DNA from: an uncultured Methanosarcinales archaeon
Lineage (GTDB): Archaea > Nanobdellota > Nanobdellia > Woesearchaeales > GW2011-AR9
Direction of reading: 5' to 3'
DNA length: 64,000 bases
Assembly: GCA_964604645.1 (NCBI GenBank)
Contig: CAZRZP010000001.1
Span: forward strand, 9,394-73,393
Made by a program: the position numbers and the translations under genes. Shown here piece after piece: positions 14,510-57,326 of this stretch; position 1 is the stretch's first letter, and every line of letters begins with the position of its first letter. The notes under the pieces were generated by a model. It was not told the DNA's origin, did no database searches, and worked only from the letters and a program-made list of their open reading frames with translations.

Positions 14510-14527
14510 TACTGTTTTTCTTTACTT

Positions 14528-14878: not shown

Positions 14879-14890
14879 TAATAATAATAA
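14874..14890. repeat. (AAT)n microsatellite
   Basis: 'aataataataataataa' sits immediately after the stop of the preceding ORF. Confidence 0.4.
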
Positions 14891-14943
14891 AAGTAGTAAA
14901 TAAAAAAGAAAAACATAAAAACAACAACTTCTTTCGTTGATGA

Positions 14944-15324
14944 ATGAATAGTGCATTAGCTTATGGAATTATTTTTGTTTTAGTTGGAATATATCTTAGT
15001 TTAGTTTTATTTGTATTAGATACAGGTAGTTTATTTGGTTTAATTCAAATTGCTGTCTTAACTGTAGTTATATTTGGATTAATCATTTCTATTGATAAAA
15101 AACGTGAGAAGGGTCCTGCTGATCCTTTAGCAGGTGAAGTTCAACAAGAAACAAATGTACAAGTTAACGTTCAAAATCAACAAACACAGCAGCCAGCTCA
15201 ACCTACAGCACAACCAGGGGATCAACAGCAACAACAGACTCAACAACCAGCAGCACAGCAAGAACAAGTTCCTGCACAACAACAAGATCCTACACAAGAA
15301 CAGCAAGTACCTATCTTAAAATAA
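14944..15324 (+). CDS. membrane protein with a Gln/Pro-rich low-complexity C-terminus
   Basis: Two TM helices, then 'QNQQTQQPAQPTAQPGDQQQQQTQQPAAQQEQVPAQQQDPTQEQQ'. CAA/CAG-rich DNA. Confidence 0.4.
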   Translation: MNSALAYGIIFVLVGIYLSLVLFVLDTGSLFGLIQIAVLTVVIFGLIISIDKKREKGPADPLAGEVQQETNVQVNVQNQQTQQPAQPTAQPGDQQQQQTQQPAAQQEQVPAQQQDPTQEQQVPILK

Positions 15325-15975
15325 TCATGCTATGATTTTTTTAGCTTTCTTCTTGGCTATCTTTAATGCAATATGTAACGGTTCTGGAATCTTATGCGGC
15401 AACTGAATTGTTTTAGAGATAATATTTAGACATGCCCCCAATGAAACTAAGTGTCCTGGTGAAACATAAATTGGGTTACTATATTCTCTTGTAGTTACTT
15501 CAAATCCAACCATATTAGCGTTGATTAAAATCTTCCCTTCATTTACATTTCCAAACAATAATTTGTCCGTGACGCCAATTGTAGGCGTGTTTAGAACTAA
15601 ACCAGTGTGGGACGCTATCCCAAAATTTCTTGGATGAGCAATACCTGCACCTTTTACCAATAAGATATCTGGTTCTTGTTCCAACTGGTTATATGCTTCA
15701 ATAATTGCTGGCATTTCTCTATAAGCAGAGAAGCCCATTCTAAATGGTAAAGGATTAGGCAGAACATAAGATTTTTTCTCAATGACTTTAAGATCAGGCA
15801 GGGAACAAACCACAACTACAGCAATTAATTCATCTCCTCTTGCTGAACAGGCAGCTCCTCCTATCGTCTTTATGGAATCAAATCCATCTCTAACTTGAAC
15901 TCTTCTTGCTAACTTCTGTTGTTCTTGCTTTATTTCTAAAAGATCCATTAACAGCACCAGTTTTATAGTTTCCAA
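15325..15975 (-). CDS. nfi: endonuclease V
   Basis: 'YVLPNPLPFRMGFSAYREMPAI' and 'KGAGIAHPRNFGIASHTGLVLNTPTIGVTDK' match the EndoV core motifs (Y.PG.LAFRE.P and DG.GIAHPRR.GLA.H.G....P.IGVAK). Confidence 0.75.
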   Translation of the reverse strand: METIKLVLLMDLLEIKQEQQKLARRVQVRDGFDSIKTIGGAACSARGDELIAVVVVCSLPDLKVIEKKSYVLPNPLPFRMGFSAYREMPAIIEAYNQLEQEPDILLVKGAGIAHPRNFGIASHTGLVLNTPTIGVTDKLLFGNVNEGKILINANMVGFEVTTREYSNPIYVSPGHLVSLGACLNIISKTIQLPHKIPEPLHIALKIAKKKAKKIIA

Positions 15976-39479: not shown

Positions 39480-39647
39480 ATGGCAAATAAATATCTCAAA
39501 GTAAGATGTGCAAAGTGTAAAAACGAACAAATTATTTTTAGTAAAGTTAGCTCAAAAGTTGAATGCCTTGTTTGTAGCAAAGAAATGGCAACTCCAACTG
39601 GTGGCAAGTCTAAGATTTCCGCTCGTCTTTTGGAAATTCTCGAATAA
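39480..39647 (+). CDS. rps27e: 30S ribosomal protein S27e (55 aa, absent from the ORF track)
   Basis: Translation 'MANKYLKVRCAKCKNEQIIFSKVSSKVECLVCSKEMATPTGGKSKISARLLEILE' shows the C4 zinc finger and 'PTGGK' motif of S27e. It starts 2 nt after the rpl44e stop. Confidence 0.8.
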   Translation: MANKYLKVRCAKCKNEQIIFSKVSSKVECLVCSKEMATPTGGKSKISARLLEILE

Positions 39648-42623: not shown

Positions 42624-43379
42624 CTAACCCAAATTTAGATTAAGTGATTCTCCACTCACTCCAAGCCCAGCTGCTTCTCCTTCTAAATTTAGTGTGGATT
42701 GTGTGGAATTATCTCTTTTATTCACAACAAATTTTCCAGTATAGGAATCAATGAAAATTTCTTCGTTTTGCAATTGATATTCTAGCTTGTTGTCAACGTT
42801 CAACTTTCCACTTCCACTATCTAATGAAAGAGTTGTTAATTCAATTGAATCCATTGCTATAAAATAATAATTCAAATTTTCAAAAGCTATGCTGATATCT
42901 TTTGGTGAAGAAAGAGCCACTTCGTTTATTTCTATTCTCTTTGCTTTCCCATTTAACGATAATCCAACTCCAGAAAAATCAAATTCTCCTACGAAACCTT
43001 CAATGTTAAGTGATACGTCTCCTAAATTATTCATCTCTAATTTATCATCATTTACTGTTATTGTTTTTGAAAGGTCATCAAAACGCAATTCCATGTTGCT
43101 AACTTTTGCAGTTTGTTTAAAGCCGGGAACTTTGTCAAAATTTAATGCTAAATCTATTATGTTACTATTCTTATTAACATTTTTCACCGCTTCCTTATTG
43201 GAATTTACAACTTTATCTGCTTCCGGACTTTTGTTAGTAAGAATTCCTATTGCTGCTGTTGTTAAGTCAATGGATCCTTCATCGTTATTTGAAAGTAGGA
43301 GTATAAAAATTCCTCCAATGACTAGAGTAATAAGGATTATGTAAAATCTGGTGTGATGTCTTCCTGCATGGGCAACCAT
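42624..43379 (-). CDS. N-terminally anchored or secreted hypothetical protein
   Basis: TM 'FYIILITLVIGGIFILLLS' followed by a beta-rich Asn/Ser/Leu-rich domain. Confidence 0.35.
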   Translation of the reverse strand: MVAHAGRHHTRFYIILITLVIGGIFILLLSNNDEGSIDLTTAAIGILTNKSPEADKVVNSNKEAVKNVNKNSNIIDLALNFDKVPGFKQTAKVSNMELRFDDLSKTITVNDDKLEMNNLGDVSLNIEGFVGEFDFSGVGLSLNGKAKRIEINEVALSSPKDISIAFENLNYYFIAMDSIELTTLSLDSGSGKLNVDNKLEYQLQNEEIFIDSYTGKFVVNKRDNSTQSTLNLEGEAAGLGVSGESLNLNLG

Positions 43380-43639
43380 ATGTCTTCCCTCGTTTTTGCA
43401 ATTAGAAGTAGATTATCTTTAATAAGCTTTTTGGTGATGCGGCCAAGTTCGGAAATTTAATTGTTGTTTGTTTTGGGTAAGATTTATTTTTAAATTCATT
43501 ATTTTTTCACTTTATATTTTTACTACATGCTGGCTTTTTTATTTTTTATTTTATTAACCATAAATCTCTGTTAATTGTTCATCTTTAATATTTTAAATTA
43601 GGAATTAATTACTACATAGCCTTATTATTTTTCTATTTT

Positions 43640-43662
43640 ATGGAAACTTATATAAATGTTAA
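43640..43662 (+). promoter_or_regulatory. putative BRE/TATA promoter for the surface-module operon
   Basis: 'ggaaacttatataaatg' is centred about 26 nt upstream of the GTG start at 43678. It is preceded by about 300 nt of AT-rich intergenic DNA. Confidence 0.4.
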
Positions 43663-43677
43663 AAAATTCCTCTACTT

Positions 43678-44151
43678 GTGTATTCAAAGCATAGAATAGA
43701 TCTAGTACAAGCAGTTTCCCAATTAGTAGGCTCTCTTTCTTTTGCTGAGAAGAGACACCTTTTTACTCAAATTTTATCAGAATCTAAACAAGTTGTTCCT
43801 CTAAGTATTTTTTCTGGTAAATTAGCAGGATTAGAAGCATTAGTTGTTTTCCTTAAAGATGAGCAAAAAAGATCAATTGCTGAAATTTCCAAATTGCTTG
43901 GCAGGAATAAGAGTACTTTATATTCAACCTATCATCAGGCAAAAAAGAAACTTATTGGAAAGCTGCCAAAACATGATTATACCATCTCTATTCCAATTGA
44001 CACTTTCTCTAATCGAAAATATTCAATTTTAGAATCATTGGTTGTTTTTCTGAAAGAACATTATCATCTTTCAATAAAAGAGATAGCAGAAAAAACTGGA
44101 AAGAAATACACTACAATTCATACGACATATTCAAGGTATAAAAAGAAATGA
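43678..44151 (+). CDS. small regulator with two tandem sigma-70 region-4/LuxR-like HTH units
   Basis: Repeat 1 is 'LEALVVFLKDEQKRSIAEISKLLGRNKSTLYSTYHQAKKKL'. Repeat 2 is 'LESLVVFLKEHYHLSIKEIAEKTGKKYTTIHTTYSRYKKK'. Its stop overlaps the ATG of the giant gene (ATGA). Confidence 0.5.
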   Translation: MYSKHRIDLVQAVSQLVGSLSFAEKRHLFTQILSESKQVVPLSIFSGKLAGLEALVVFLKDEQKRSIAEISKLLGRNKSTLYSTYHQAKKKLIGKLPKHDYTISIPIDTFSNRKYSILESLVVFLKEHYHLSIKEIAEKTGKKYTTIHTTYSRYKKK

Positions 44152-47100
44152 GCAAACAAAAAGTAAGTGAAAGTACAAAGAGAAAAAGAAGCGTTACTAG
44201 AAGAAAGACTTCAACAAATTGGACTTCAAGGAAGAAAGAAGTTGATAGTAGATTAAAGCTTCTAAGTAATCCAAAAGTTCCAACTTGTCCAACTGAGAAA
44301 TCTATAATCCCGCATGAAAAAATAAAGTCAGAGGGAAATATTTGGTTATTGTCTTCAATTGTAATAATTGTTATTCTTGCTGGTTTTACCTTTTTACTTT
44401 TTGATCCAAGTATTACTGGAGCTTTTAGCACTGCTGGTTTTGGGATTCTATTAACTGATGAAACAGATGATTTAGTTACTTTTTATGATGAGTTTTTAGA
44501 TGGTTTAACTAACAAAACAAGATGGTATAACTCAACTAGTTTAACATCAATGCATTTTATTGAAGATCAAATTATTATTAACACTTCATTAGCTAATAAC
44601 GCAGGAGATGGTTCCATAATAACTACTCAAAATTTGACAATGCATTCGTTTAATATCACTGCTAATGTTAGTTTACAAAATACTTCTTCCACTTTTAGTG
44701 TTGATTCATATACTCGTATCACAGTAGCCACATTTGACCAAATAACTCTTTTTCCAGAGACAACGTGTTCTTTGTTTTTAGAGGAGGCTTCCTCTGGAGC
44801 TTACGCATTATATTTTGGTAATTCAACTACTAGTAATCCTCCTCCTACAATTATTTCCAGTACATTAAGCGATTTTGGCAATAATCTTTCTGGTTTATTG
44901 AATATGGAATTTAAGAATGAAACTAACATGGTTAATTGTACTTTTACTGCTGGTGATAATTCAGTTACGATTGGAGGAGTAAGCAACGATCTTGGGCATG
45001 GTTATGGAGTTGGAATATTTGCAGAGTTAGGATTTCAAGGTGAAGGAGACCCTTCAGGAGATTTAAATGCAACTGTTTATGATTTTAATTATAGTTTAGC
45101 TCCTGCGGAAGTGGTTAATACTCCTCCTACAATCAATTCAATTATTTTAAACACTACTGATGTAAATTTAAATGATACTGAACAGAATGTAACTCTCTAT
45201 ATTGACGGGATTGATTCGGACGGAGATACTTTAAGAAATTTTACCACATGGATATTAAATAATTCTCCTTTAATGGAGTTTTATGTTCCATTTGAACCTT
45301 CAGGGGAATTAAATGCTACAGATTATGCTGATTTTGATAGTAATGGTTCTGCTGTCGGCGGAAGTCCATTTTGGAATTCAACCGGTGGTCATGACGGGGG
45401 CGGTGCTTGGCGATTTCCAGGAGGTTCAGATACAATTCTCCTTGCAGATGGAAATTTTCCTGACATCGGTGCAGGTAATTATACTTTGGATGTCTGGATT
45501 AGATTGAATACAACGGCAAATTATAAGACTATTTTTTCCCATAATAATTTTGATCCAGGTTTTTATGTTCATCAGGGATCCCTTATTGTCTACGATGGTG
45601 GAGATATAACTGGTGATACTGGTCTTGGTTTTACTGATGATTTGTGGCATCACGCAGCATTTGTCCGAAATTCGACAGGTACTAATGGTCTGAATTTTTA
45701 TCTTGATGGAGAGCCAGCTGGAGTTGCAACGCATTCAGCTTCTTTTCCTGCAATGACTGACTTGCGAGTTGGTTGGAGTTCAGCTGGTAATGAAAATTTT
45801 GATGGCCATATTGATGAACTAAAATGGTGGAATATACCCTTAACTTTGCAACAAATTCAAGCAATTTATCGTAATGGAACTAATATTATTGTTTCTTCAG
45901 AAACAACTGCTGGTCAGAACTGGACAGCTGATGTAACTCTTAACGATGGAACAGGGGATAGTGCAACAGCTAGAAGTAATCAATTGATAATTACTGACGG
46001 TGGTGGTGCTCCAGCCGGCAGTGGAACTCTCTCAATTAACAGAACTTTCCCTTACCTCAACTCAACCAGCCGAAAACAAAATGAAACGTTCAACATGACT
46101 TACAACCTTTCATGTGCTGATGATGATTGTTCAGATATTTCTGTTTCATTGGAATTCAACCCTCTAAATAATTCTAATTTTGAATATGGTATTAATGGTT
46201 GGGAAACTGGCGGAGACGGTGAATGGTTTGCTACTGAAACTTTCCCTCAAGACAGTGCAGCAAGTACACAGTCGGGAGCCATTTCAGATAATGAAATCAC
46301 TTGGATAAACCAAAGTGTTTATGTAAATCAAAGTGCTCAATTAGTATTCTATTGGAATGTAAGTTCAGAAAATACTTTTGATTACTTGTTATGGTGTCCT
46401 GACGCTCCAAGTTGTACAAGAACTGCTGGCTATGAATCTAGAATCTCTGGATCAACCGCAATGGCCAAAGTTACTTACGACCTAACTGCAGGAGCACATC
46501 AACTTATTTGGAAGTATGCTAAAGATTCTAGCAATCCGGTTGGAGCGGACGCAGGATGGGTTGATAACATCACTGTTTTTTCTAGAGTACCTAATGGTAC
46601 AAATGCATCACCTTTCAAAACTATGGTTACTAATATTCAGAATAAAACATATTCAAGTTGTTTAGGCTCTTTGTCTGTAGATGGTAGTTGTACTTTTGCT
46701 TTTATCATTAATTCTACTGGTCAAATAAATGAGTCACACGACTTACGTGTTTCAGTAACATCAAGTGATTCTGGTGTTGATGCTATTAATACAACTATTT
46801 TGAATGTTACAATTAACAATTCCGCTCCAGCATCTCCAGATACCACTCCACCTCTTCTTTATGTAGATTTTCCAGAGAATAATACTAAGTATGGTAGAGA
46901 ACGAGTTTGGTTAAATTTTACTGTGTCTGATGAAACTGAATTAGATCAATGTTGGTTCACTATTTTTAATGGTTCTAATTCCACCTTAGGTGGGTGCTCT
47001 AATATCTCATTTACACCAGGTAGAGGACCATTTAATTTAACAATTTACGCTAATGATAGTTCTAACAATCTTAATATTACTGGTCCTATTAATTTTAGCA

Positions 47101-50100
47101 TTAACTCTTTACCTTCAGTAAGTAATTTAGTTCTTAATACGACAGAAGTAACCACTAATGACACCAATCAAAATATAACCCCTTATTGGACAACAAGTGA
47201 TACTGACGGAACTGATACTGTACGTAACATTACTAACTGGTTATTGAATGGAACTTCAATTACTGTTCTTCATTTACCTTTTGAAGGAAATGTAAACTCA
47301 TCTACTTTAGCTGTAGACTATTCAGGATATGGTAATAATGGGTCTGTTCGTGGACCAGTTTACAACTCAACCGGATTCATCAATGCCACTCCAGGTTTTG
47401 GTTCTTTTGTTGCTACTGGTGCTTTAGAGTTTGATGGAATTGATGATTGGGTTAATGTATCTCATGATAATAGCCTTAGTGTTACAGATGAATTTACATT
47501 GATGATGTGGGTTAGAGATCCAGTAACAGGTTACGGTGCAACTAATTACACCACTCGCTGGGTTACCAGTCAATATAATTCAAGTGACTGTCCTTGGACT
47601 GTAACTACGGGTGCAGATGATGCTATGCGCACAGCTACTTTAGGTTTTGAATTTCCTTTCTTTGGTCAGAACATAAGTGGCTCAGCTACAGTTTATATGG
47701 ATACAAATGGTCGATTAAGTTTTGATGACTCTACCTCTGATTTCAATCCAACTACTGGAGAGATGGATGCGGAGAAGAATATTGCAGCAATCTGGCAAGA
47801 TTATGGTGGAGCTGCTCAAAACCATGAACATATTTGCACTAACCAGGGAGATGCTCCTGAAAAGTGGGCAGCTTTTCTATGGAACAGCACTTTTTATAAT
47901 AATGACGGAACCGTGGAAACCGAATTAGTTCTCTTTCAGAATGGCAGCATCTTATCTCGTTCTGGAACAATTGCTGCACACACTGACGATTGGATAAGGG
48001 GTTTAAGTAACGGATCTGATTATCATTATGAATTTAAAAGTGCAATTTTAGCTAATGAGTCTCAAAATGCATTTTTCTGGGATTTAATTTATCCTGTGGA
48101 AGTAGCAGCAGCAGATGAACCGTTACCGGAACGTTCATTAATCAACAAAAATTACAGCTATACTTTGCAAATGCGGAACATGACTGTATGGGGTTTCATA
48201 AATGGCAGTACATTAACAAATGTTTCAGTGGAAATTACTAAAAACTGGACGCATTTAGCCATGACTTTTAATTCAACCGATCTTACTCTTTTTAAAGATG
48301 GCAAATGGAATGATAGCATAAGTATAACTGCTAAAGTAAAACCTAATACTACTGATGTAGTTATCGGCGAATTAATTAATGGTTCGATTGGTGAAGTATT
48401 TATTTTCAATCGTAGTTTATCAGCACAACAGATAAATGCCTATTACAAAAACAAAACAATTATCCATTCAGAAGAAACTACAACTGGTCAGAACTGGACA
48501 GTTGATGTTACACCAAATGATGGTTATGAAGATGGAACCACTGTTAGATCGGATCAATTAATTACTTTAGGTGCTGCTGCCGCAGGAAATACTGTTCCAA
48601 CAATAGATTCGATTGGAATTAATTCAACCGATGTTCTTAGGAATGATACTTCTCAAAATGTTACTGCTAACGTAAGTTCAAGTGATGATGACGACGATGA
48701 TATAAAATTAGTTTACAACTGGCTTCATAATAATTCTCCTTACGCTGTTCTCAACATGCCTTTTGAAAGAGTTAACGGAACGTCAACAGATAATGGTTGG
48801 GATTATTCCGGTAATGCAAATAATGGTTCAGTAACTGGAGCTACTTGGAATTCTTCGGGTGGTTATGATGGTTCAGATAGTTATGTTTTTGATGGAATTA
48901 ATGACCGAATTGTAATTCCAGATAATGTAACCTTACGTCCAGGAACAACAGAATGGACGGTTGCTGCTTGGATTAAACCACCTAACTTGGATCAAAATGG
49001 TCCTTTCATTGCAAAAAGGTTGGCTAGCGGAACGTTTAACCAGATGCAACTTCTTGTTGGCACCATAGGTGGGGGTGGTTCTGTAACTGCGAGTAAAAGA
49101 GTATCTGTAATACTTAGAGAAGGAGCTTCAGGAAATTGGTGGTTTTATACTTCAAGTGATGTAGCAGATGGAGAGTGGCATCATGTTGCTTTTGTAAGAG
49201 AAACGGATGAAAGTGATAACGCTTTGTATATAGATGGTACTGCAGCTTCTTTAACTCAAGCAAAAAACGATGGAGGTACAATTCAAGATATTGACAACAC
49301 TCAACCATGGACAATTGGAAATGATAATGCTGCTGTCTATTACAACGGTTCAATTGATGAAATCTTGATATTTAATCGGTCTTTGTCGGCTCAACAAATA
49401 GCGGCAATTTATAGAAATGAAACTGACATCATTGTTTCACAAGAAACTACTCCTGGAGATAATTGGACTGTTGAAGTAACGCCTAATGATGGTACTGAAG
49501 ACGGTTCTTTCTCTAGATCAAATCAAATAATAATTAACAGACCTCCCACAATTGACACGATTGGTTTGAACTCTACAAATTTAGCAATTAATGGAACAGA
49601 TCAAAATCTTACTGTTAATGTTAGTTATACTGATATAGATGGGGACAAAGTTAAATTAATTTACAATTGGCTTGTCAATGGTTCTCCACAACACTTATTC
49701 AACATGCCATTTGAGAGAGTTAATAGTACTTTAACAAACAACGCTTATGATTATTCTACGTATGCTAATACTGGGACAGTTTCCGGTGCAATTTGGAACA
49801 GCAGCGGAGGTTTTGATGGCAATGGTTCCTATGATTTTGGAAAAGGTGGAGTTGCAATGGTGGATATCACCTTGGGAACTCACTTATATCTCAATAATAG
49901 TTATGATGAATTTACAACCATGGCCTGGGTCAAAACTGATGATAACTCAAAAACATATCAGTGGATTTTTACTCAGCATTCGGGGAATACATTTGGTGAA
50001 AAAAGAGTGGGTCATGGTTTGATGTTTTGGAATAACGATCTTCTTTTTGTAATCTCAAATGATACTGCTAATGTAAATAGTGATACAGCTAGAGTAAATA

Positions 50101-51203
50101 ATGTAATTACTGAAAATAACACTTGGTACCATGTGGCTGGTAGAGTAAACACAACTAATGTTTCAGTTTTCCTTAACGGTGAATTGCAGGCAGTTGTACC
50201 ACGAGCCAGAAGCCCACATAAATCTGGAGATTTAAATATTGGCGGAGGCGGGGTGGCTTCTTCTCAATTTAATGGATCTGTCGATGAAGTCTTACTTTTT
50301 AACAGAAGTCTTTCCCTAGAACAGATTCAGGCAATTTTCAAAAATCAATCCACTGTAATTGTCTCTCAAGAAACAAGAGCTCATGAAAACTGGACTGTTG
50401 AAGTAATTCCCAATGATCGAATAGCTGACGGAGAATCTGCAATCTCAAATCAATTAGTCATAATAAACAGCCCTCCGACAACTCCTCATCTTAACCTTAC
50501 TCCTGTTAATGGAACTTCTATTACCAACAGGACACCAACAATGAGCTGGTCAAATTCAACAGATGATGATGGAAACCAAATAACTTATCATATACAAATT
50601 GACGACAATTCAGCTTTTAATAACCCGGAGGTGAATGTTTCATCAATCTCAACTGATCCTGGAAAACCAAATGTAACTTATTACGTCGATACGGAATTAG
50701 ATGTTGATGTAGTCTATTATTGGAGAGTAAGGGCAGAAGACAATACTGAATTTGGGGAGTTTACCGGAGAAAATAATTTCACGGTTGATTCATTAATCTC
50801 ATTTTCCTTGCCAACCAGCACCATAGAATGGGGTTCTCAAGCTCCAAATCAGGAAATAACCACTGCTGACGGAACTCCAGCGCCAATGAGGGGAGAAAAT
50901 ACTGGAAACATCCTTTTGAACGTTTCAATAAACGCTACACAATTATTCAACGGGACTGCTCTAAATAATAGTGCATATCAATTCATGATTCGTGAAAATT
51001 TAACTAGTTCCTATAATTTAACTCTATCAGCTGGTAATTGGACGAATATGTCTAAAAGATTACACAGCGTCGTACATGTAGTTAGATTAAATTGGCAGAA
51101 TGTAAACGACGATTTCCTGTTCGACTTAAATTTAACCATTCCGTCAGATGAGAGGGCAGGAACAAAAACATCAATAATAGATTTTACGGTGGAACAAGGA
51201 TGA
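44148..51203 (+). CDS. giant (2351 aa) type-II-anchored surface glycoprotein with repeated Ig-like plus LamG_3 (concanavalin-A-like lectin) modules and a C-terminal FN3-like domain
   Basis: Basic cytoplasmic N-terminus, then a single TM 'LLSSIVIIVILAGFTFLLF'. At least four LamG_3 units, each with the lead-in 'L.MPFE...DYSG.GNNGSV.G' and the ending 'FNGSIDE(V/I)LIFNRSLS..QI.AIY+N.T'. Interspersed 'PPTI(N/D)SIG.NSTD' Ig-like segments. FN3-like 'TPTMSWSNSTDDDGNQITYHIQ...YYWRVRAEDN'. Very many N-x-S/T sequons. Confidence 0.75.
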   Translation: MSKQKVSESTKRKRSVTRRKTSTNWTSRKKEVDSRLKLLSNPKVPTCPTEKSIIPHEKIKSEGNIWLLSSIVIIVILAGFTFLLFDPSITGAFSTAGFGILLTDETDDLVTFYDEFLDGLTNKTRWYNSTSLTSMHFIEDQIIINTSLANNAGDGSIITTQNLTMHSFNITANVSLQNTSSTFSVDSYTRITVATFDQITLFPETTCSLFLEEASSGAYALYFGNSTTSNPPPTIISSTLSDFGNNLSGLLNMEFKNETNMVNCTFTAGDNSVTIGGVSNDLGHGYGVGIFAELGFQGEGDPSGDLNATVYDFNYSLAPAEVVNTPPTINSIILNTTDVNLNDTEQNVTLYIDGIDSDGDTLRNFTTWILNNSPLMEFYVPFEPSGELNATDYADFDSNGSAVGGSPFWNSTGGHDGGGAWRFPGGSDTILLADGNFPDIGAGNYTLDVWIRLNTTANYKTIFSHNNFDPGFYVHQGSLIVYDGGDITGDTGLGFTDDLWHHAAFVRNSTGTNGLNFYLDGEPAGVATHSASFPAMTDLRVGWSSAGNENFDGHIDELKWWNIPLTLQQIQAIYRNGTNIIVSSETTAGQNWTADVTLNDGTGDSATARSNQLIITDGGGAPAGSGTLSINRTFPYLNSTSRKQNETFNMTYNLSCADDDCSDISVSLEFNPLNNSNFEYGINGWETGGDGEWFATETFPQDSAASTQSGAISDNEITWINQSVYVNQSAQLVFYWNVSSENTFDYLLWCPDAPSCTRTAGYESRISGSTAMAKVTYDLTAGAHQLIWKYAKDSSNPVGADAGWVDNITVFSRVPNGTNASPFKTMVTNIQNKTYSSCLGSLSVDGSCTFAFIINSTGQINESHDLRVSVTSSDSGVDAINTTILNVTINNSAPASPDTTPPLLYVDFPENNTKYGRERVWLNFTVSDETELDQCWFTIFNGSNSTLGGCSNISFTPGRGPFNLTIYANDSSNNLNITGPINFSINSLPSVSNLVLNTTEVTTNDTNQNITPYWTTSDTDGTDTVRNITNWLLNGTSITVLHLPFEGNVNSSTLAVDYSGYGNNGSVRGPVYNSTGFINATPGFGSFVATGALEFDGIDDWVNVSHDNSLSVTDEFTLMMWVRDPVTGYGATNYTTRWVTSQYNSSDCPWTVTTGADDAMRTATLGFEFPFFGQNISGSATVYMDTNGRLSFDDSTSDFNPTTGEMDAEKNIAAIWQDYGGAAQNHEHICTNQGDAPEKWAAFLWNSTFYNNDGTVETELVLFQNGSILSRSGTIAAHTDDWIRGLSNGSDYHYEFKSAILANESQNAFFWDLIYPVEVAAADEPLPERSLINKNYSYTLQMRNMTVWGFINGSTLTNVSVEITKNWTHLAMTFNSTDLTLFKDGKWNDSISITAKVKPNTTDVVIGELINGSIGEVFIFNRSLSAQQINAYYKNKTIIHSEETTTGQNWTVDVTPNDGYEDGTTVRSDQLITLGAAAAGNTVPTIDSIGINSTDVLRNDTSQNVTANVSSSDDDDDDIKLVYNWLHNNSPYAVLNMPFERVNGTSTDNGWDYSGNANNGSVTGATWNSSGGYDGSDSYVFDGINDRIVIPDNVTLRPGTTEWTVAAWIKPPNLDQNGPFIAKRLASGTFNQMQLLVGTIGGGGSVTASKRVSVILREGASGNWWFYTSSDVADGEWHHVAFVRETDESDNALYIDGTAASLTQAKNDGGTIQDIDNTQPWTIGNDNAAVYYNGSIDEILIFNRSLSAQQIAAIYRNETDIIVSQETTPGDNWTVEVTPNDGTEDGSFSRSNQIIINRPPTIDTIGLNSTNLAINGTDQNLTVNVSYTDIDGDKVKLIYNWLVNGSPQHLFNMPFERVNSTLTNNAYDYSTYANTGTVSGAIWNSSGGFDGNGSYDFGKGGVAMVDITLGTHLYLNNSYDEFTTMAWVKTDDNSKTYQWIFTQHSGNTFGEKRVGHGLMFWNNDLLFVISNDTANVNSDTARVNNVITENNTWYHVAGRVNTTNVSVFLNGELQAVVPRARSPHKSGDLNIGGGGVASSQFNGSVDEVLLFNRSLSLEQIQAIFKNQSTVIVSQETRAHENWTVEVIPNDRIADGESAISNQLVIINSPPTTPHLNLTPVNGTSITNRTPTMSWSNSTDDDGNQITYHIQIDDNSAFNNPEVNVSSISTDPGKPNVTYYVDTELDVDVVYYWRVRAEDNTEFGEFTGENNFTVDSLISFSLPTSTIEWGSQAPNQEITTADGTPAPMRGENTGNILLNVSINATQLFNGTALNNSAYQFMIRENLTSSYNLTLSAGNWTNMSKRLHSVVHVVRLNWQNVNDDFLFDLNLTIPSDERAGTKTSIIDFTVEQG

Positions 51204-52414
51204 AACGAAAAATAATATTTATTTGTATTTTATTAATACTAATAAGTTCAGTTTACGCAACTGGAATTAGGCCTGCTAAAACTGAATTAGCGTTTGATGA
51301 AACTAAATATATAAACAAAACAATTTGGGCTATTAATAATGACTATAATGGTTTGGATCTGAGTATATCTGTACAAGGAGAAATTGCTGAATATGTAAAC
51401 CTACATACTACCAAGCTTACAATCCGTGATGATGAAGATGCTAAACCAATTAACTTTGAAATTAGTTTACCTCCTTCCATACCGCCTGGGATTTCAACTG
51501 CTTATATTGTTGTTGAAGAAAAATCAATTCATGGTGAAGGGAGTAGCGTGTCAAGTAGAATTTTATTGAAACATAAAATTATTGTTGAAGGCCCTTATCC
51601 TGAGAAATATGTGAAAGCGAAAGTTAATTTTCGGGATACTGGAGATACTATTATGTTTGTGTCTGAAGTTGAGAATTTCGGAACTAAAGATTTGGAGAAC
51701 GTTTACACCAACTTTTATGTAAACGATAAATTATCAAAACAACAGAAACCTTCAACTGAAGGTACATCATTGAAAACTAATGAAAATAAACTTTTAACTA
51801 CTTCCCTTCCCAAGACTTTATTTGATTTGGGTGAATATGAAGTTTCTGCAGTAACTCATTTTGATGGCCAGCAAGTTGAATTACTTAAGAAATTAAGAGT
51901 TGGAAAACCAGATGTTGACGTAACATATTTTGACAAATACTTTCAAGCTTATGAGTTAAACCGGTATGCTATGGATCTATTAAATAAATGGAATCGGGAA
52001 ATAAAAAATGTGTTTGTTGATGTTGAAGTTCAAAAAGACGAGAAAAAAGTTGATTCATTCCGAACTAAATCTGTTGATCTTCCAGCTGAAGTGTTAAAGA
52101 GGATTGAAGATTATTTAGATGGCAGAGAAAAATCTCCTGGAGTTTATACATTCAAATTAATTGTAAACTTTTGGAACGATATTAGGATGGAACAGAAAGA
52201 ATTCTTATTTGATTCTGAATTTCTTGAACCGGGCATTGAACTTCCAGAAAGAAACGCCCTTTCTGGAGCAGCTACACAAACAGAATTAAATGGAACATCA
52301 TTTTCATGGCTTCCATGGATAATCATTACTCTTTTATTACTTTTAATTACTTCGTATGTTGTCTACAGGTACATTAATCGAGAAGAATATGAAAGAGGGG
52401 GCGACGTTTTTTAA
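51200..52414 (+). CDS. secreted beta-rich protein with signal peptide and C-terminal TM anchor (paralog of 54673-55809)
   Basis: 'MKRKIIFICILLILISSVYA' signal. C-terminal 'WLPWIIITLLLLLITSYVVYRY' plus a short tail. ATGA overlap with the giant gene stop. Confidence 0.5.
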   Translation: MKRKIIFICILLILISSVYATGIRPAKTELAFDETKYINKTIWAINNDYNGLDLSISVQGEIAEYVNLHTTKLTIRDDEDAKPINFEISLPPSIPPGISTAYIVVEEKSIHGEGSSVSSRILLKHKIIVEGPYPEKYVKAKVNFRDTGDTIMFVSEVENFGTKDLENVYTNFYVNDKLSKQQKPSTEGTSLKTNENKLLTTSLPKTLFDLGEYEVSAVTHFDGQQVELLKKLRVGKPDVDVTYFDKYFQAYELNRYAMDLLNKWNREIKNVFVDVEVQKDEKKVDSFRTKSVDLPAEVLKRIEDYLDGREKSPGVYTFKLIVNFWNDIRMEQKEFLFDSEFLEPGIELPERNALSGAATQTELNGTSFSWLPWIIITLLLLLITSYVVYRYINREEYERGGDVF

Positions 52415-52481
52415 GGTTTGTTACTTTGCAGTTAACACGAGCTTTTATAAACTTTTTTCAATCTTTTAATTGGGATAGACA

Positions 52482-52763
52482 GTGGCAAGGAAAAAGAAGG
52501 TGAAGAAAGTGGTTTCCGTTGTGGATAAGAGTTCTAACACTGTTGTTGCCGTCTTATTAATTTTGGTTATTTTAGCTAGTTTAGTTAGCCTGTTATTAAT
52601 TCCACAAGCTGCAAATAGTGCTACTCCAAAAAAAGTAAACGATATCTCAACTAGTAAGGGTGAAGTTAGTATTGAAATTCTAAGTCCCGGTCAAAATCCA
52701 ACAGGGGATTTTCCTTCATCAACAGGTGAAGTTTCAATTCAAATAAATAAAAAGGGCGAGTAA
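52482..52763 (+). CDS. small N-terminally anchored or pilin-like protein
   Basis: 'KKKVKKVVSVVDKSSNTVVAVLLILVILASLVSLLL'. It shares the 'S-N-x-(I/V)-V-x-x-L-L-(I/V)-(V/L)' N-terminal motif with the next two genes. Confidence 0.35.
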   Translation: MARKKKVKKVVSVVDKSSNTVVAVLLILVILASLVSLLLIPQAANSATPKKVNDISTSKGEVSIEILSPGQNPTGDFPSSTGEVSIQINKKGE

Positions 52764-52765
52764 AT

Positions 52766-53644
52766 ATGGCAGACGTTTCCAATAATATTGTTGTTGGGCT
52801 ACTTGTTGTGGCTCTTGTTTTAACTATCACTAGTACTGTAGTTAGCTTACAGAAATTAAGTGTACTTGAAGGTAGTTTTAGTCTTCTCACTGGTGCTGCA
52901 ACTACTACTGCTTCAGGAGATTCTAATATAACAATTACTTCGGTAACTTCTATTAAAAATCATAATGCCTCTTTAGGTTTCGGTTCTGGTAATATCAATG
53001 CTACTTGTGATTATTGTCAAATAATTATGGAAGGGTCGGTAATTGATGCATTTTCAAATGGTACGAATGTTGCTAAAATGAATACCCAAGCCAATATTAA
53101 CTGTTGCGTTGGTTTTACAATACCAGGAAACGGATTTATTATAGAAAATATTGGTAACACTAACCTTTCTGTTGGATATACTTGTTCCGAATTGGATGGG
53201 GAGACTAACGCCGCTGGGAATTGCACTTTTAATCATTTTATCGGTGGAACAATTCCAAGTAGCCAAGGGGGTATAAGCTTTAGAATTGAAGCTGAAAGTG
53301 ATAGCTCATTATCTGCTGATGTTGGTACTGATAGTGCAACTGATACAGAATCTTCTTGTGCTGGTGGAGGGAATTATCCTGGCGTTGAAATGTGGAATGC
53401 CACTAATGATAGTGCTTATGGCAATGTTCCTTCAGCCGCAGCTTTTGAAGGTCTTGGAGGAACTGTATTTCACCCTCTTCAACTTTATCATTGGATATGT
53501 GGTAACGCAACGCAGTATCCTTTAGACTCTGGCGCAGATCGTGATGCTGGAGTTATGACTTTTAACGTTACTATTCCGTCTAGTGCCCCATCTGGCCTAG
53601 GTATCAGAGCATTTTTATTAAATTTTAATGGAACTTCTAGTTAA
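52766..53644 (+). CDS. secreted or anchored Cys-containing glycoprotein, tandem paralog A
   Basis: About 60% identity to 53764-54639. N-terminal 'SNNIVVGLLVVALVLTITSTVVSLQKLS'. Conserved C-terminus 'PSSAPSGLGIRAFLLNFNGTSS'. Many sequons. Confidence 0.5.
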   Translation: MADVSNNIVVGLLVVALVLTITSTVVSLQKLSVLEGSFSLLTGAATTTASGDSNITITSVTSIKNHNASLGFGSGNINATCDYCQIIMEGSVIDAFSNGTNVAKMNTQANINCCVGFTIPGNGFIIENIGNTNLSVGYTCSELDGETNAAGNCTFNHFIGGTIPSSQGGISFRIEAESDSSLSADVGTDSATDTESSCAGGGNYPGVEMWNATNDSAYGNVPSAAAFEGLGGTVFHPLQLYHWICGNATQYPLDSGADRDAGVMTFNVTIPSSAPSGLGIRAFLLNFNGTSS

Positions 53645-53763
53645 TTATTATTATTATTCCACTTTTTCTTTTGTTCATATCTTGTCGCTACTCTCAAGTT
53701 TAGATGAACATTTATATTCTCTATCTCTCTTATTACAACAAATACTACTGATTTAAATCAAAT

Positions 53764-54639
53764 ATGGCGGAGTTTTCAAATAATATCATTGTGGGATTGC
53801 TAGTGGTGGCTCTTGTTTTAACGGTTACCAGTACAGTCGTGAGTTTACAGAAATTGAGTATACTTGAGGGGGGGTTTGAATCTCTAACTTCTGCTGCAAC
53901 CACAACTGCAAGTGGAGATTCAAATATTACTATTAATTCAGTTACCTCTATAAAGAACCATAATTCATCTTTAGGGTTCGGATCCGGTAATGTTAACGCA
54001 ACATGTGATTTCTGCCAATTAACAATGAATGCTACTACAATTGATGGGTTTTCAAATGGTACAACTGTCGCAAGATCTACAACAATAGACGATAGTCTTT
54101 GTTGTGCTGGTTTTACATCTATAGGTTATGGCTTTGTTATTGAAAACATTGGGAATACTAATTTATCGGTTGGTTATACTTGTTCCGAGTTGGATGGCGA
54201 GACTAACGCTGCAGGTAACTGTACTTATGCTCATTTTATTGGAGGTACTATACCAGCAGGCCATGGAGGTATAGGGATTAGAGTAGATGGCGAATTTAAC
54301 CTTGGTGCAGATATAGGTACTGACTCTGCACTTGATACTGTTGAATCTTGTGCTGGTGGAAGTACTAGTTATGTTGGTGTAACTGGTTGGAATATAACTA
54401 ATGCTAGCGCTTACGGAAGTGCTCCAGCAGGAGCCCAGTTTGAAGGTTTAGGAGAAGGCTTATATGCTCAGCTTGGTCTTTACCATTGGTTGTGTGGTAA
54501 TGTAACACATTTTCCTTTAGACTCAGCTGGTGATAGAGACGCTGGGATAGTAAGGTTAAATGTTACAATTCCAAGTAGTGCCCCATCTGGTCTAGGTATT
54601 CGGGCATTTCTATTAAATTTTAACGGAACTTCATCGTAA
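53764..54639 (+). CDS. secreted or anchored Cys-containing glycoprotein, tandem paralog B
   Basis: Paralog of 52766-53644 with the same termini and Cys spacing ('NATCDFCQL', 'LCCAGFT', 'YTCSELDGETNAAGNCT'). Confidence 0.5.
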   Translation: MAEFSNNIIVGLLVVALVLTVTSTVVSLQKLSILEGGFESLTSAATTTASGDSNITINSVTSIKNHNSSLGFGSGNVNATCDFCQLTMNATTIDGFSNGTTVARSTTIDDSLCCAGFTSIGYGFVIENIGNTNLSVGYTCSELDGETNAAGNCTYAHFIGGTIPAGHGGIGIRVDGEFNLGADIGTDSALDTVESCAGGSTSYVGVTGWNITNASAYGSAPAGAQFEGLGEGLYAQLGLYHWLCGNVTHFPLDSAGDRDAGIVRLNVTIPSSAPSGLGIRAFLLNFNGTSS

Positions 54640-54672
54640 GGTTTATATTGTTCTTTTTTTTCCTTATTTTTA

Positions 54673-55809
54673 ATGAAACGGGTTATTTTTGTTGTTGTAC
54701 TGTTCTTACTAAGCTTCCAAGTTTTTTCAATAGGCTTGGCAACTTCTAAAATAGAAATTCTTAATTACGTTCCTGGAACTTCTCAAACAATGGGTTTTCA
54801 AGTGATGGGAACAAGCTCTGATGTTGATATTCAAGTGTCTCAAGGCCCTCTTAATAATGTTGAAGTGACTGAATTAAATGAACAAAATAAATTTCATGTA
54901 ACTTTCAATTTTGATGAAACTTTTATTGAACCTGGCGATTACATCCTCGCAGTTACTGTTAAAGAGAAACCAAATCTTCTTTCTGGTGGAGGAATGAAAG
55001 CCCTTACCTCAGTTTCAAAGAGAATTAAGATGCGAGTACATAGTTATGAAAAAGATGTACAGATTAGTTTATCAACCCCTAAAATAAACAAAGGTTTTCC
55101 TTTACCGGCTACTTTAAACGTGCAAAGTGTAGGTTATCCAGATATCGATTCTGTTGGGGGAACTATTTCTATTTTTGACAAAGAGGGAAATCTATTGGAA
55201 TCAATCACCACTGAAAAGAAGCCTTTGCCTAGCTTATCTAGTGTTTCTTTTTCCCACACATTTCAAACTCAAAACCTTCAAAAGGGCACATACTTTGCAA
55301 CTGCTGAAGTAACATATGATGGGAAAAAAGAAAATACAACCTCAAATTTCTTAATTGGAGATTTAGATCTTTCGTTAGTTAAATATTCAAACAAACTAAA
55401 TAGAGGTTATAATAATTTTAATGCTACTGTGGAAAACAATTGGGGTAATCCTGTTGGAAATATTTATGCTAAATTATTTTTTAGTGAAAAAGAGGTGCTA
55501 CATACACCCACAATATCTCTTCCAGCCTGGGAGCAGGGAATTCTAAGAGGAATAATCAATATTGATTTAGAACCTGGGAAACACTCAGCAATTTTACGTC
55601 TTTTCTTTGAAGGTAATCAAAAAGATGAGAATATTACTCTTGAAATATTGGAACAAACTGCCACGCAGGTATCTTTGCCAAAACTAAACAAACCAAGCAC
55701 TTTATATTTTCCTTACCTTGCGGTTTTAGGTGCGATAGTTATGATATTAATTCTTTTTTTTATTTGGAAGGGAGGAATGTTTAACAATGATAACAAAAAG
55801 GAAATTTAA
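54673..55809 (+). CDS. secreted beta-rich protein with signal peptide and C-terminal TM anchor (paralog of 51200-52414)
   Basis: 'MKRVIFVVVLFLLSFQVFS' signal. C-terminal 'LYFPYLAVLGAIVMILILFFIWKGG'. Shared 'Y..A.VT.DG' motif. Confidence 0.5.
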   Translation: MKRVIFVVVLFLLSFQVFSIGLATSKIEILNYVPGTSQTMGFQVMGTSSDVDIQVSQGPLNNVEVTELNEQNKFHVTFNFDETFIEPGDYILAVTVKEKPNLLSGGGMKALTSVSKRIKMRVHSYEKDVQISLSTPKINKGFPLPATLNVQSVGYPDIDSVGGTISIFDKEGNLLESITTEKKPLPSLSSVSFSHTFQTQNLQKGTYFATAEVTYDGKKENTTSNFLIGDLDLSLVKYSNKLNRGYNNFNATVENNWGNPVGNIYAKLFFSEKEVLHTPTISLPAWEQGILRGIINIDLEPGKHSAILRLFFEGNQKDENITLEILEQTATQVSLPKLNKPSTLYFPYLAVLGAIVMILILFFIWKGGMFNNDNKKEI

Positions 55810-56227
55810 TTCAAGTAATTATCTACTCTATGGGCTTATTCTGGTAATCCTACTAACTTCGGCTGTAACTTATCTAAATTGGCCTGAATGCACTTCAATT
55901 CAGGAGATGAGTACAATGGTCAAAGTTAAAGAAGCTGTTAATGGAAACGCTTGGATTGGTTTGACTGGGGATACAGATAAACTTGATTTTGGTGGGGTTT
56001 CACCTGGTTCAATATCTTCTCGTAAAATAAAAATAAAGAGAATTGTTGATGCTGACGTCTCTGTTTCTTATACTAATGAGATTGGCAAGTGGATGAGCGT
56101 CAAACCTAGCCCTATGTTTTCGATTAAGTCTGGTGAGGAAAAAGAAATTACTGTGGAGATTAATGTTCCTCAAGAAGTTCAAAACGGAAAGTATGAAGGT
56201 ACAGTAAAGTTTTGCTTTAAAGAATAG
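55787..56227 (+). CDS. N-terminally anchored small protein, last gene of the surface-module operon
   Basis: TM 'LLYGLILVILLTSAVTYL' followed by a beta-rich domain. Overlaps the previous gene by 23 nt. Confidence 0.4.
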   Translation: MITKRKFNSSNYLLYGLILVILLTSAVTYLNWPECTSIQEMSTMVKVKEAVNGNAWIGLTGDTDKLDFGGVSPGSISSRKIKIKRIVDADVSVSYTNEIGKWMSVKPSPMFSIKSGEEKEITVEINVPQEVQNGKYEGTVKFCFKE

Positions 56228-56383: not shown

Positions 56384-56836
56384 ATGGCAAGAATGCATAG
56401 TAGAAAGAAAGGTAAAAGTAAAAGCGTTAAACCTATAGCTGGAGTTCCATCTTGGGCACCCTATAAAGGCAAAGAAGTTGAGAAATTAGTAATCAAATAT
56501 GCCAAAAAAGAAAAAACATCCAGTGAAATTGGTATAATTTTAAGAGATAGTTATGGGATTGGCAGTGTGAAAGCATCAACTGGAAAGACTGTGGTAAACA
56601 TCTTAAAAGAAAATAAACTTCAGAAAGATTTACCTGAAGATTTATTGAATGTAATCCGAAAATTGGTTGCAATTAATCAACATCTTGAAAAAAATAGGCA
56701 AGATAAGACTGCAGGCAGGGGATTACTTCTGACGACTTCTAAAATAAGACGTTTGACTAAATACTATAAAAAAATAAACCGGATACCTGCTGATTGGAAT
56801 TTAGATATAAAGCGTTCAAAGATGTATTTAGAATAA
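56384..56836 (+). CDS. rps15: 30S ribosomal protein S15 (S13e family)
   Basis: 'MARMHSRKKGKSKS...PSWAP' N-terminus and 'IGIILRDSYGI' are typical of archaeal S15P. Confidence 0.85.
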   Translation: MARMHSRKKGKSKSVKPIAGVPSWAPYKGKEVEKLVIKYAKKEKTSSEIGIILRDSYGIGSVKASTGKTVVNILKENKLQKDLPEDLLNVIRKLVAINQHLEKNRQDKTAGRGLLLTTSKIRRLTKYYKKINRIPADWNLDIKRSKMYLE

Positions 56837-57003: not shown

Positions 57004-57024
57004 CAGAACTATAACATAGTTCTG
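57004..57024 (-). terminator. hairpin at the 3' end of the wHTH gene
   Basis: 'cagaactat-aac-atagttctg', a 9-bp stem overlapping the stop codon region. Confidence 0.25.
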
Positions 57025-57326
57025 ATACTTTCAATGTTTCCTGCGATTTCTTGGCCTTTTTTTGTTAACTCTAACAACTTAAGACGACCTTCTTTCTTAA
57101 AATTAATTAGCTCTGCTTTCTGCATCTCTTGTAAAATCTTTACAACATGCGAATAAGTGCAGTCTATTTGCTTCGCCAAAACTGAAGCATAGATGTTACT
57201 ATTGGCATTCTTTAACTCTACCAACATCATGGCTGGTTTTTCTCTAAAAAACACGTCAAATATCGATTTATTTCTATTCAAGTTGGACACCCCCAAACTC
57301 ATCCCCACCTCAAAGTTAGGGTACAA
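57009..57326 (-). CDS. winged-helix DNA-binding protein (MarR/TrmB-like fold)
   Basis: 'NIYASVLAKQIDCTYSHVVKILQEMQKAELINFKKEGRLKLLELTKKG' is an HTH plus wing pattern. Confidence 0.4.
   Translation of the reverse strand: MYPNFEVGMSLGVSNLNRNKSIFDVFFREKPAMMLVELKNANSNIYASVLAKQIDCTYSHVVKILQEMQKAELINFKKEGRLKLLELTKKGQEIAGNIESIRTML

Follow-up and report, generated by a model that had tools for sequence, protein, structure and literature searches.

Introduction

DPANN archaea make up a large share of archaeal diversity and most of them are thought to live attached to other cells; to our knowledge, little has been learnt, except in a few cultured lineages, about the molecules that form their surface and serve attachment. 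Whether a dedicated system for such a surface can be recognised in a genome, and how it might be put together, is the question raised by eight consecutive genes (P1 to P8) on contig CAZRZP010000001.1 of an uncultured archaeon placed by GTDB in the Woesearchaeales (the whole stretch of 64,000 nucleotides that was analysed is called the window below). An earlier note on the window had proposed that these genes form a dedicated, conserved surface module. This claim stands, as homologs fall into 688 clusters and the gene order is kept in about 30 loci, while the composition was seen incompletely, the head domain of the giant protein and the homologies of P8 with P3 and of P4 with P5 having been overlooked. 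On profile comparison the module appears to be built from two superfamilies, termed here head and stalk, plus a regulator, and is tentatively read as a surface display complex. The genes are:

43678-44151, plus strand: P1, DNA-binding protein of 157 amino acids (aa) with a GTG start; its stop overlaps the start of the giant gene
44148-51203, plus strand: P2, giant glycoprotein of 2351 aa with a 66-aa basic N-terminal tail, one transmembrane (TM) helix, a variable middle and a C-terminal head domain
51200-52414, plus strand: P3, stalk/anchor protein of 404 aa with a Sec signal peptide, immunoglobulin (Ig)-like (CARDB-like) domains and a C-terminal TM helix (aa 370-388)
52482-52763, plus strand: P4, membrane protein of 93 aa with a GTG start, a basic N-terminal tail, an 'SN-T' motif and a TM helix (aa 22-40)
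52766-53644, plus strand: P5, head protein of 292 aa with an SN motif, a TM helix (aa 8-28) and a Cys-rich beta-sandwich rich in N-glycosylation sequons
53764-54639, plus strand: P6, head protein of 291 aa, tandem paralog of P5 (72% identity, E 4e-142)
54673-55809, plus strand: P7, stalk/anchor protein of 378 aa with a Sec signal peptide, three beta-sandwiches, a linker and a C-terminal TM helix (aa 345-370)
55787-56227, plus strand: P8, protein of 146 aa with an N-terminal TM helix and one Ig-like domain of the ASH/PapD-like type, overlapping P7

All eight open reading frames (ORFs) lie where they had been placed, in agreement with the independent gene calls on the source metagenome scaffold of 248 kb (ENA ERZ23498905 scaffold_47; JGI 3300007504 Ga0104999_1000012). 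The ATGA overlaps of P1 with P2 (44148-44151) and of P2 with P3 (51200-51203) are real, and the later spacings of 67, 2, 119 and 33 nucleotides (nt), followed by the 23-nt overlap of P7 and P8, are as had been claimed.

A gene order conserved among DPANN archaea

The gene set and its order recur in about 30 independent DPANN loci, as seen after classification of the genes of 34 fetched loci with family hidden Markov models (HMMs). A word-indexed search with the single sequence of P7 had retrieved two proteins only and was repeated with an alignment, and the metagenome scan used the P7 family. Two sub-modules can be distinguished. Sub-module A consists of the gene for a small DNA-binding protein, the gene for a large protein ending in a head domain and a P3-type gene, and sub-module B is the cassette of P4, the head gene P5, P7 and P8, the order of which is almost invariant and is kept even in relatives at E ~1e-13 (loci L023 and L024). 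P3 always follows the large gene, P8 follows P7 in all loci, and with few exceptions the P5-like gene has a P4-like gene ahead of it. On contigs of sufficient length, the trio of sub-module A always adjoins the cassette, in tandem, divergent or swapped placement, and sub-module B is separate and divergently placed in L008, L013 and L035; given this variable placement, each pair of head and stalk therefore moves as a block. A second head gene, as represented by P6 in the window, is also present in L008, L011 and L013, where it is located after P8.

These observations bear directly on the least demanding explanation, that unrelated generic glycoproteins are adjacent by chance. P3, P7 and P8 match only generic Ig-like families and do so below threshold, as this explanation would expect, but order and content are maintained in about 30 loci down to the most remote relatives, gene overlaps recur (that of P7 and P8 also in other loci) and the components share domains with each other. 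Chance adjacency is excluded because of this synteny and deserves next to no credence.

The head superfamily and its N-terminal strand

P5 and P6 are closer to each other than the roughly 60% identity that had been estimated for them, and their C-termini are identical, as described before. A HMMER search with the P5 family retrieved 688 cluster representatives (50% identity) at E <= 1e-3 and 191 at E <= 1e-10, most of them 210-290 aa long, and every named member of the superfamily derives from Woesearchaeota, Nanoarchaeota or 'DPANN group' metagenome-assembled genomes. The earlier view of the locus as a candidate for an undescribed system is supported by sequence searches of Pfam, NCBIfam and the PDB, in which neither P5 and P6 nor 28 close and 50 diverse relatives of P5 found a match; P4 had no match in Pfam and NCBIfam scans, and a Foldseek comparison of the P5 model with the PDB gave no significant match. 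Neither the head nor the stalk superfamily is present in Pfam-A (2025 copy) or NCBIfam 20.0, and no description of the cassette or of a similar DPANN system was found in the literature, of which not all journals were covered.

P5 contains eight Cys, an invariant T42-G43-A44 and a conserved strand GDSNITITSV (aa 51-60). In the AlphaFold2 model, which is of moderate quality (predicted local distance difference test, pLDDT, 69), a helix of aa 6-42 and a low-confidence stretch of aa 37-60 are followed by an Ig-like beta-sandwich. The strand of aa 51-60 is highly conserved and yet modelled as disordered (pLDDT 37-41), and therefore fits a segment that folds on a partner. P4 is homologous to residues 3-57 of P5 (hhalign 70.9%, E 3.8e-5), that is, to the SN-x-T motif, the TM helix and the first strand, and carries the strand motif GEVSI(E/Q)I in two copies; P4 can be described, as far as the profiles tell, as the N-terminus of P5 plus two copies of its first strand.

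A conserved strand of this type brings to mind a donor-strand-exchange pilus of the TasA, thread, Tafi or bundling-pilus kind. P5 and P6, cleaved at T-G-A, would polymerise by the NITITSV strand filling the groove of the next subunit, with the giant at the tip via its head domain, P4 providing the last donor strand together with the membrane anchor, and P3, P7 and P8 acting as assembly or anchoring factors. Disorder of the conserved N-terminal strand in the model is as reported for TLP-1, P4 combines an anchor with two copies of the strand, and at least two head paralogs are found per locus. LamG proteins with a subunit-type domain recall TafC of the Tafi pilus, which also has an anchor with a C-terminal TM helix, TafF (PMC11821415), and the TafC-like logic of this pilus (PMC11821415, PMC12337348) points the same way. 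The subunit is heavily glycosylated, as are the threads (PMC9715654), no ATPase is needed, and the top structural neighbours of P5 are donor-strand filament subunits, although these similarities are weak and insignificant. On the other hand, there is no match to TasA/Peptidase_M73, DUF1102 or a SipW-type signal, and none of the loci contains a signal peptidase, unlike the tapA-sipW-tasA and taf clusters. A signal peptide that is discarded would not be expected to show the high conservation of the N-terminal TM helix, and the 'donor' strand is continuous with an upstream domain in the giant and in the fusion protein P0081. Such a pilus is a genuine but rather unlikely alternative.

A leader as conserved as the folded core

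The hydrophobic N-terminal motif S-N-x-(I/V)-V..LL, to which attention had been drawn in P4, P5 and P6, is present in all three and conserved throughout the superfamily. In an alignment of 153 representatives with a pairwise identity of <=50%, the leader residues S5, N6, L11-L12, A16 and T24, situated before and within the TM helix, are as conserved as residues of the core, among them G43, G51, F72-G75, C84, C114, E127-N131, C198 and C245. Because the leader is conserved as strongly as the folded core, the motif is not an ordinary Sec signal, as the earlier note had suspected. It is also not a canonical class III (prepilin) signal: the boundary motif reads (D/E)-(I/V)-S-N-(K/R)-T, and pilin and SipW-type signal models matched neither the 28 close nor the 50 diverse members of the P5 family. 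P4 proteins have basic leaders of varying length (13-36 aa), with the conserved motif at the boundary of the hydrophobic stretch.

That the locus encodes a type-IV-pilin-like fibre has to be considered here. P5 and P6 would be the major pilins and P4 a minor one, with a non-canonical class III signal cut at (D/E)-(I/V)-S-N, the shared hydrophobic helices forming the core of the fibre and the assembly machinery being encoded elsewhere in the genome. The N-terminal helix is indeed the best-conserved segment of the superfamily and common to P4 and P5, the basic leader of P4 varies in length with the motif exactly at the hydrophobic boundary, AlphaFold2 models residues 6-42 of P5 as one long helix ahead of the Ig-like head, and the heads are glycosylated as in archaeal pili. 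The motif lacks, however, the [KR]-[GA] cleavage signature, archaeal pilin N-terminal models remain unmatched, and their partners, P3 and P7, are type I membrane proteins of a plain Sec type. As the earlier note had observed, a PilB/FlaI ATPase, a PilC/FlaJ platform protein and a prepilin (A24) peptidase are absent; none is encoded in the window, nor is any linked to the module in the approximately 30 loci. Clustering of the neighbours of the 34 loci for a linked peptidase or ATPase retrieved ribosomal and other housekeeping genes only, and a signal peptidase was found neither in the window nor among the recurrent neighbours of the approximately 30 loci.

The T-G-A leader provides a further argument. 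The motif T-G-A together with G-x-x-N-I-x-I directly follows the signal sequence in a Sec-type surface protein, otherwise ordinary, that is encoded at 39610-41532 of the window (minus strand; 640 aa with Big_9/PKD Ig domains, a Gly run, a Cys-rich region and a C-terminal TM helix) and is internal in P0081, while P2 has a short form, S-I-T-G-A, without the strand motif, just after its TM helix. Because of this recurrence T-G-A is read as a putative signal-peptidase-I-type site, with the strand as the presumptive mature N-terminus, which speaks against prepilin processing. A type-IV-like fibre is altogether improbable. The leader of the 39610-41532 product, 'TM...NITGYTTSTGESNICI', copies that of P5, 'LLTGAATTTASGDSNITI', and a T-G-x / G-E-x-N-I-x-I leader therefore seems to be common to several surface proteins of this organism.

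One head paralog, P0003 (56-61% identity with P5 and P6), is an orphan, being encoded outside any cassette on a contig from the same metagenome (L004, 10001-10870; Ga0104999_1000970), where it adjoins a Peptidase_M50 gene and a DegT-type aminotransferase gene.

The giant LamG protein ends in a head domain

P2 was announced as a LamG-repeat giant glycoprotein of 2351 aa, and length, LamG domains and an excess of N-X-S/T sequons (129 versus 47 +/- 6 in shuffled sequences) all hold. Four matches to Laminin_G_3 (E 7e-67 overall), three of which are above the cut-off when tested singly, follow the single TM helix (aa 67-85). P2 combines multiple Laminin_G_3 domains, a length of >2000 aa and a membrane anchor, the features that define LamG giants of DPANN archaea. 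The domains are:

45420-45860, plus strand: LamG domain 1, aa ~425-571 (Laminin_G_3, E 3.9e-20)
48210-48437, plus strand: LamG domain 2, partial, aa ~1355-1430 (Laminin_G_3, E 1.3e-9)
48894-49403, plus strand: LamG domain 3, aa 1583-1752 (Laminin_G_3, E 5.6e-24)
49902-50330, plus strand: LamG domain 4, aa ~1919-2061 (Laminin_G_3, E 2e-19)
50508-50750, plus strand: FN3/Ig-like domain, aa 2121-2201 (Ig_Rha78A_N, E 3.7e-6, 27.6 bits versus a cut-off of 27.4)
50739-51200, plus strand: C-terminal head domain, aa ~2198-2351 (firm for 2243-2349; reciprocal HMMs with the P5 superfamily)

A match of the giant to the NCBIfam model 'TafC fimbrial protein' was rejected as a sign of Tafi membership, as it covers LamG only and reaches 82 bits against a cut-off of 410.

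The assignment of the C-terminus is carried by comparisons in both directions. An HMM of the last 300 aa of the large proteins matches 89 of 199 representatives of the P5 superfamily (best 39.7 bits), and reciprocally an HMM of 93 short representatives matches P2 at 2243-2349 with 36.8 bits (i-E 1.2e-12) as well as the extreme C-terminus of seven out of seven large proteins, reversed and shuffled controls reaching <=6.5 bits. A first hhalign comparison of the P2 C-terminus with the close P5 family was weak (15.6%, then 39.9%), and the relationship became convincing only with the wider superfamily and the controls. By these profiles, the last ~110-150 residues of the giant are assigned to the head superfamily of P5 and P6, and with the C-terminus of the giant being a head domain, only two superfamilies plus a regulator therefore build the module.

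The large proteins of other loci (995-1985 aa) have only aa 88-316 and aa 2078-2350 of P2 in common with the giant. Their middle is not conserved, that of L018 with LamG repeats and that of L006 without, and they carry cytoplasmic N-terminal tails of 65-90 aa. LamG can also be joined to the head domain in other ways, as it is fused before the head domain in P0081 and inserted inside the head domain in P0156.

The stalk superfamily

P3 and P7 had been recognised as anchored paralogs, which is true although the relationship is remote (23% identity, E 7e-8); their family profiles match over the full length with 99.4% probability (E 6e-22). The model of P7 (pLDDT 84) comprises three beta-sandwiches, at aa 21-122, 129-229 and 233-326, and the TM helix. 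P8, which has two invariant Cys (C35 and C143), is homologous to the first domain of P3 (hhalign 89.7%, E 1.8e-6). In Pfam and NCBIfam P3, P7 and P8 give sub-threshold Ig-like matches only, among them CARDB in nine of nine P3-family members, and the P5, P7 and P8 family profiles retrieved nothing below E 0.18 from PDB sequences. Further sub-threshold matches concern two domains of the WxL-interacting proteins (WxLIP) of Gram-positive bacteria: WxLIP_HBD in two of 13 P7-family members (best E 9e-6) and one of nine P3-family members (E 0.068), and WxLIP_PGBD in two of 11 P8-family members (best E 0.0013).

The cytoplasmic tails of many P7-family members end in ...DEF after a basic stretch, which could be a docking motif for a cytoplasmic partner. 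In L006 (13082-14560, minus strand) and also in L010, L012, L025 and L030, a protein of 390-520 aa with a P8-like Ig domain is encoded convergently just downstream of P8; the window has no counterpart of this gene.

A probable glycosylated outer component and its stalk

Head proteins and large proteins contain 4.3-5.5 sequons per 100 aa, twice the expectation from shuffled sequences, and a median of ~8 Cys, whereas P3, P7, P8 and P4 have 0.3-1.3 sequons per 100 aa and ~0-2 Cys. The split runs through the families and suggests that a glycosylated component faces outwards, on top of a layer of stalks that is shielded and close to the membrane.

The same split could be expected from an S-layer-like or general envelope coat with a structural role, in which P5 and P6 would be the abundant outer glycoprotein, the stalks its anchors and the giant an accessory decoration. 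The cassette is located beside the L1-L10-L12 ribosomal protein operon in seven loci (L027, L033, L035 and L038-L041) and beside the S15 gene (56384-56836) in the window, and with these ribosomal neighbours therefore resides in the core genome and not in an island. It is moreover widespread and diversified, and the succession of a large protein gene and a gene for a membrane-anchored beta-sandwich protein of ~400-470 aa is that of slaA-slaB, where the gene of a large protein is followed by that of a membrane-anchored protein. With ~250 mature residues, however, P5 is small for an S-layer protein, and the presence of a dedicated regulator, along with variable adhesive inserts such as LamG and leucine-rich repeats (LRR), points to an adhesin under regulation more than to a wall made constitutively. 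A coat in this sense is distinctly unlikely.

A proposed head-and-stalk display complex

The reading that we favour is a Sec-exported, ATPase-independent complex for surface display and attachment in DPANN archaea, held tentatively and with somewhat less than even confidence. It starts from gene content and order, the homologies, the topology signals, the sequon split and the lack of motor and peptidase genes at the locus. P5 and P6 represent the head domain alone, a Cys-rich, heavily N-glycosylated beta-sandwich, and the large proteins carry the same domain C-terminally behind a variable, exchangeable ectodomain, consisting in P2 of four lectin-like LamG modules. P3 and P7 are type I membrane proteins, anchored by a C-terminal TM helix, whose three Ig-like domains are poor in sequons, and P8 has the first of the stalk domains in one copy behind an N-terminal anchor. 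Every head gene has a stalk gene as its genetic partner, P2 being paired with P3, and P5 with P7 and P8. After export, the stalks would bind the head domains and hold them at the membrane-distal face by beta-strand complementation of Ig domains. The strands exchanged would be the conserved one at the N-terminus of the head (G-x-x-N-I-T-I) and the two copies of it in P4, and this strand-only membrane protein may help to hold the heads. The outcome would be an outer glycosylated layer on an unglycosylated stalk layer, from which the LamG giant projects as a presumed adhesin. The description as 'adhesin plus accessory subunits' given in the earlier note is a plausible one.

Several points weigh against this display complex. 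Few family members match the WxLIP domains, and they do so below the Pfam cut-offs; the head domain has no WxL match. Neither the conserved SN motif and TM helix of P5 and P4 nor the cytoplasmic N-terminal tails of 65-90 aa of the large proteins nor the role of P4 is explained by the model, and a strand-only P4 fits a polymer-capping role at least as well. If the anchor of the large protein is retained, its C-terminal head domain is placed far from the membrane-bound stalk. The adhesive role, finally, is suggested only by the LamG domains and DPANN biology.

A more far-reaching version would combine P4-P5-P7-P8 with the large adhesin and P3 into an unrecognised DPANN-wide, ATPase-independent attachment organelle, a fibre or stub of donor-strand-joined glycosylated heads with P4 as cap and anchor and the lectin giants held at the tip by their head domain. 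We regard it as doubtful, with a limited chance of being right; if true, such an organelle would be how cells of the Woesearchaeota and Nanoarchaeota type hold on to hosts or surfaces.

Regulator and transcription units

P1 had been called a dual helix-turn-helix (HTH) regulator, and two sigma-70 region-4-type HTH units are found in it (Pfam Sigma70_r4_2, E 4.9e-13, two stretches), with HTH_23 matched in addition. Homologs of P1 occupy the same slot in L011, L035, L038 and L042, and in L006, L008, L013, L018 and L032 the slot upstream of the large gene is filled by a winged-helix protein of ~80-95 aa ('EPLETKEIE...GSGKGTWIWW'); the two types of occupant are mutually unrelated. Sub-module A is presumably under the control of the small DNA-binding protein whose gene directly precedes that of the giant.

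With respect to transcription, the following intergenic features are relevant:

43380-43677, no strand assigned: AT-rich intergenic region of 298 nt, likely promoter region of sub-module A (GC 0.232 versus 0.335 in the window)
52443-52451, plus strand: TATA-like box TTTTATAAA, ~35 nt 5' of the P4 start, from sequence reading
53645-53763, no strand assigned: stretch between P5 and P6, containing a T-tract at 53663-53675 and a TATA-like TTTATATT at 53711-53718, from sequence reading

The AT-rich upstream stretch with its TATA box had been pointed out before. With 23% GC against 33.5% in the window and a TATA-like box TTATATAA at 43648-43655, ~27 nt 5' of the GTG start of P1, it is likely to act as the promoter of sub-module A. 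The box at 52443-52451 is likewise a likely promoter of sub-module B on its own, and the gap between P5 and P6 possibly holds a terminator and an internal promoter. Another TATA-like box precedes P7 (54642-54649), and a T-tract follows P6 (54654-54661). A single coupled unit of 12.6 kb, as had been proposed, is unlikely because of the TATA-like boxes before P4, P6 and P7 and the T-tracts after P5 and P6, to which the divergent or swapped sub-modules of relatives can be added, and the module probably consists of two or three transcription units from two separable sub-modules. A scan for bacterial sigma-70 promoters and terminators gave 44 sites versus 50 expected and, as it uses a bacterial model, is uninformative for an archaeon.

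Neighbouring genes

The remaining genes of the window are archaeal housekeeping genes (exosome, proteasome, aIF2-alpha, Nop10, ribosomal proteins, SerRS), apart from a few that merit mention. Divergent from the upstream region of the module, 42624-43379 (minus strand) encodes a protein of 251 aa with an N-terminal TM helix and no family match. Just past the S15 gene, an ORF at 57009-57326 (minus strand) has 105 aa from a TTG start and 97 aa in the scaffold gene call; it matches HTH_27 with 22.3 bits versus a cut-off of 22.2, HTH_45 and HVO_A0114-like models lie below the cut-off, and it was not met beside the cassette in other loci. The 602-aa product of 60074-61882 (minus strand), with a signal peptide, a coiled coil, two TM segments, a Cys-rich C-terminal ectodomain and no curated family match, is a further uncharacterised envelope protein. 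In the lineage of L008 only, genes for an LRR protein and an archaeosortase-like protein (Exosortase_EpsH) directly follow the module (13434-15370).

Significance and comparison with known systems

The module adds two uncatalogued superfamilies, one with 688 clusters at 50% identity, and offers a simple, testable architecture of a head domain paired with a stalk as well as a rule by which variable adhesins can be located, a large protein ending in a head domain and then a P3-type gene. Should strand complementation be true, the module would be an archaeal equivalent of the WxL clusters, or else open a new branch among donor-strand assemblies that do without a chaperone; should the envelope coat be true, the missing surface-layer proteins of these lineages would be identified. 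The module is a good candidate for how DPANN cells build their attachment surface.

Archaeal type IV pilins resemble the module in that major and minor components share an N-terminal hydrophobic helix and that the head is a glycosylated beta-sandwich, but differ in the class III cleavage motif, the match to pilin models and the linked ATPase, platform protein and peptidase, all of which are lacking here. SlaA/SlaB of the Sulfolobales have in common with it the gene for a large glycosylated outer protein followed by that for a smaller stalk, which is built of beta-sandwiches and has its TM helix at the C-terminus. There is, however, no sequence or significant fold similarity to them and no sign of a lattice; the stalks are without a coiled coil, the large protein is variable and lectin-rich, and a four-gene cassette is extra.

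Among donor-strand filaments assembled without an usher, TasA/TapA/SipW, bundling pili, Sulfolobus threads, Tafi (with the LamG tip protein TafC and the anchor TafF) and cannulae were compared. The module shares with them Sec dependence without an ATPase, a glycosylated Ig-like subunit whose leader is directly followed by a conserved N-terminal strand, a LamG protein with a subunit-type domain and a membrane-anchored accessory protein. In contrast, no sequence relationship was detected, as Peptidase_M73/TasA, DUF1102/CanA, TafA/TafE and Saci_0406 families gave no match in Pfam, NCBIfam and PDB profile searches, and the structural similarity to P5 is not significant. A dedicated signal peptidase (SipW/TafD) is missing from the locus, the leader/TM segment is strongly conserved, and the subunit-type domain is C-terminal in P2 and N-terminal in TafC.

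The closest analogue is the WxL/WxLIP cluster of Gram-positive bacteria, which encodes a small protein consisting of WxL only, a large protein with C-terminal WxL and N-terminal binding domains, and a WxLIP protein (DUF916-DUF3324) with Ig domains and a C-terminal TM helix that is predicted to insert a strand into WxL (PMC10599100). A small HTH regulator is associated with WxL clusters as well (PMC10599100; PMC13522541). The docking-domain-only protein (P5, P6), the large protein with C-terminal docking domain (P2) and the Ig/TM partner (P3, P7) all have a counterpart of the same architecture, although the parts are non-homologous, and in both systems the Ig partner has a signal peptide and a C-terminal TM helix. 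The matches of P7- and P8-family members and of one P3-family member to WxLIP_HBD and WxLIP_PGBD are weak, those of P3, P7 and P8 in the window lying below curated cut-offs, and only these would hint at real kinship; the Pfam WxL domain matched neither P5 and P6 nor the 28 close and 50 diverse family members at E <= 10. The DPANN module differs further in having three Ig domains per stalk versus two and one stalk per head protein versus one per two, in heads that are Cys-rich, N-glycosylated and equipped with a conserved N-terminal TM helix, in the additional P4 and P8, and in its host, an archaeon without peptidoglycan. Clusters of a surface adhesin with Ig-domain anchors are thus a known kind of system, of which the DPANN module appears to be a previously undescribed version.

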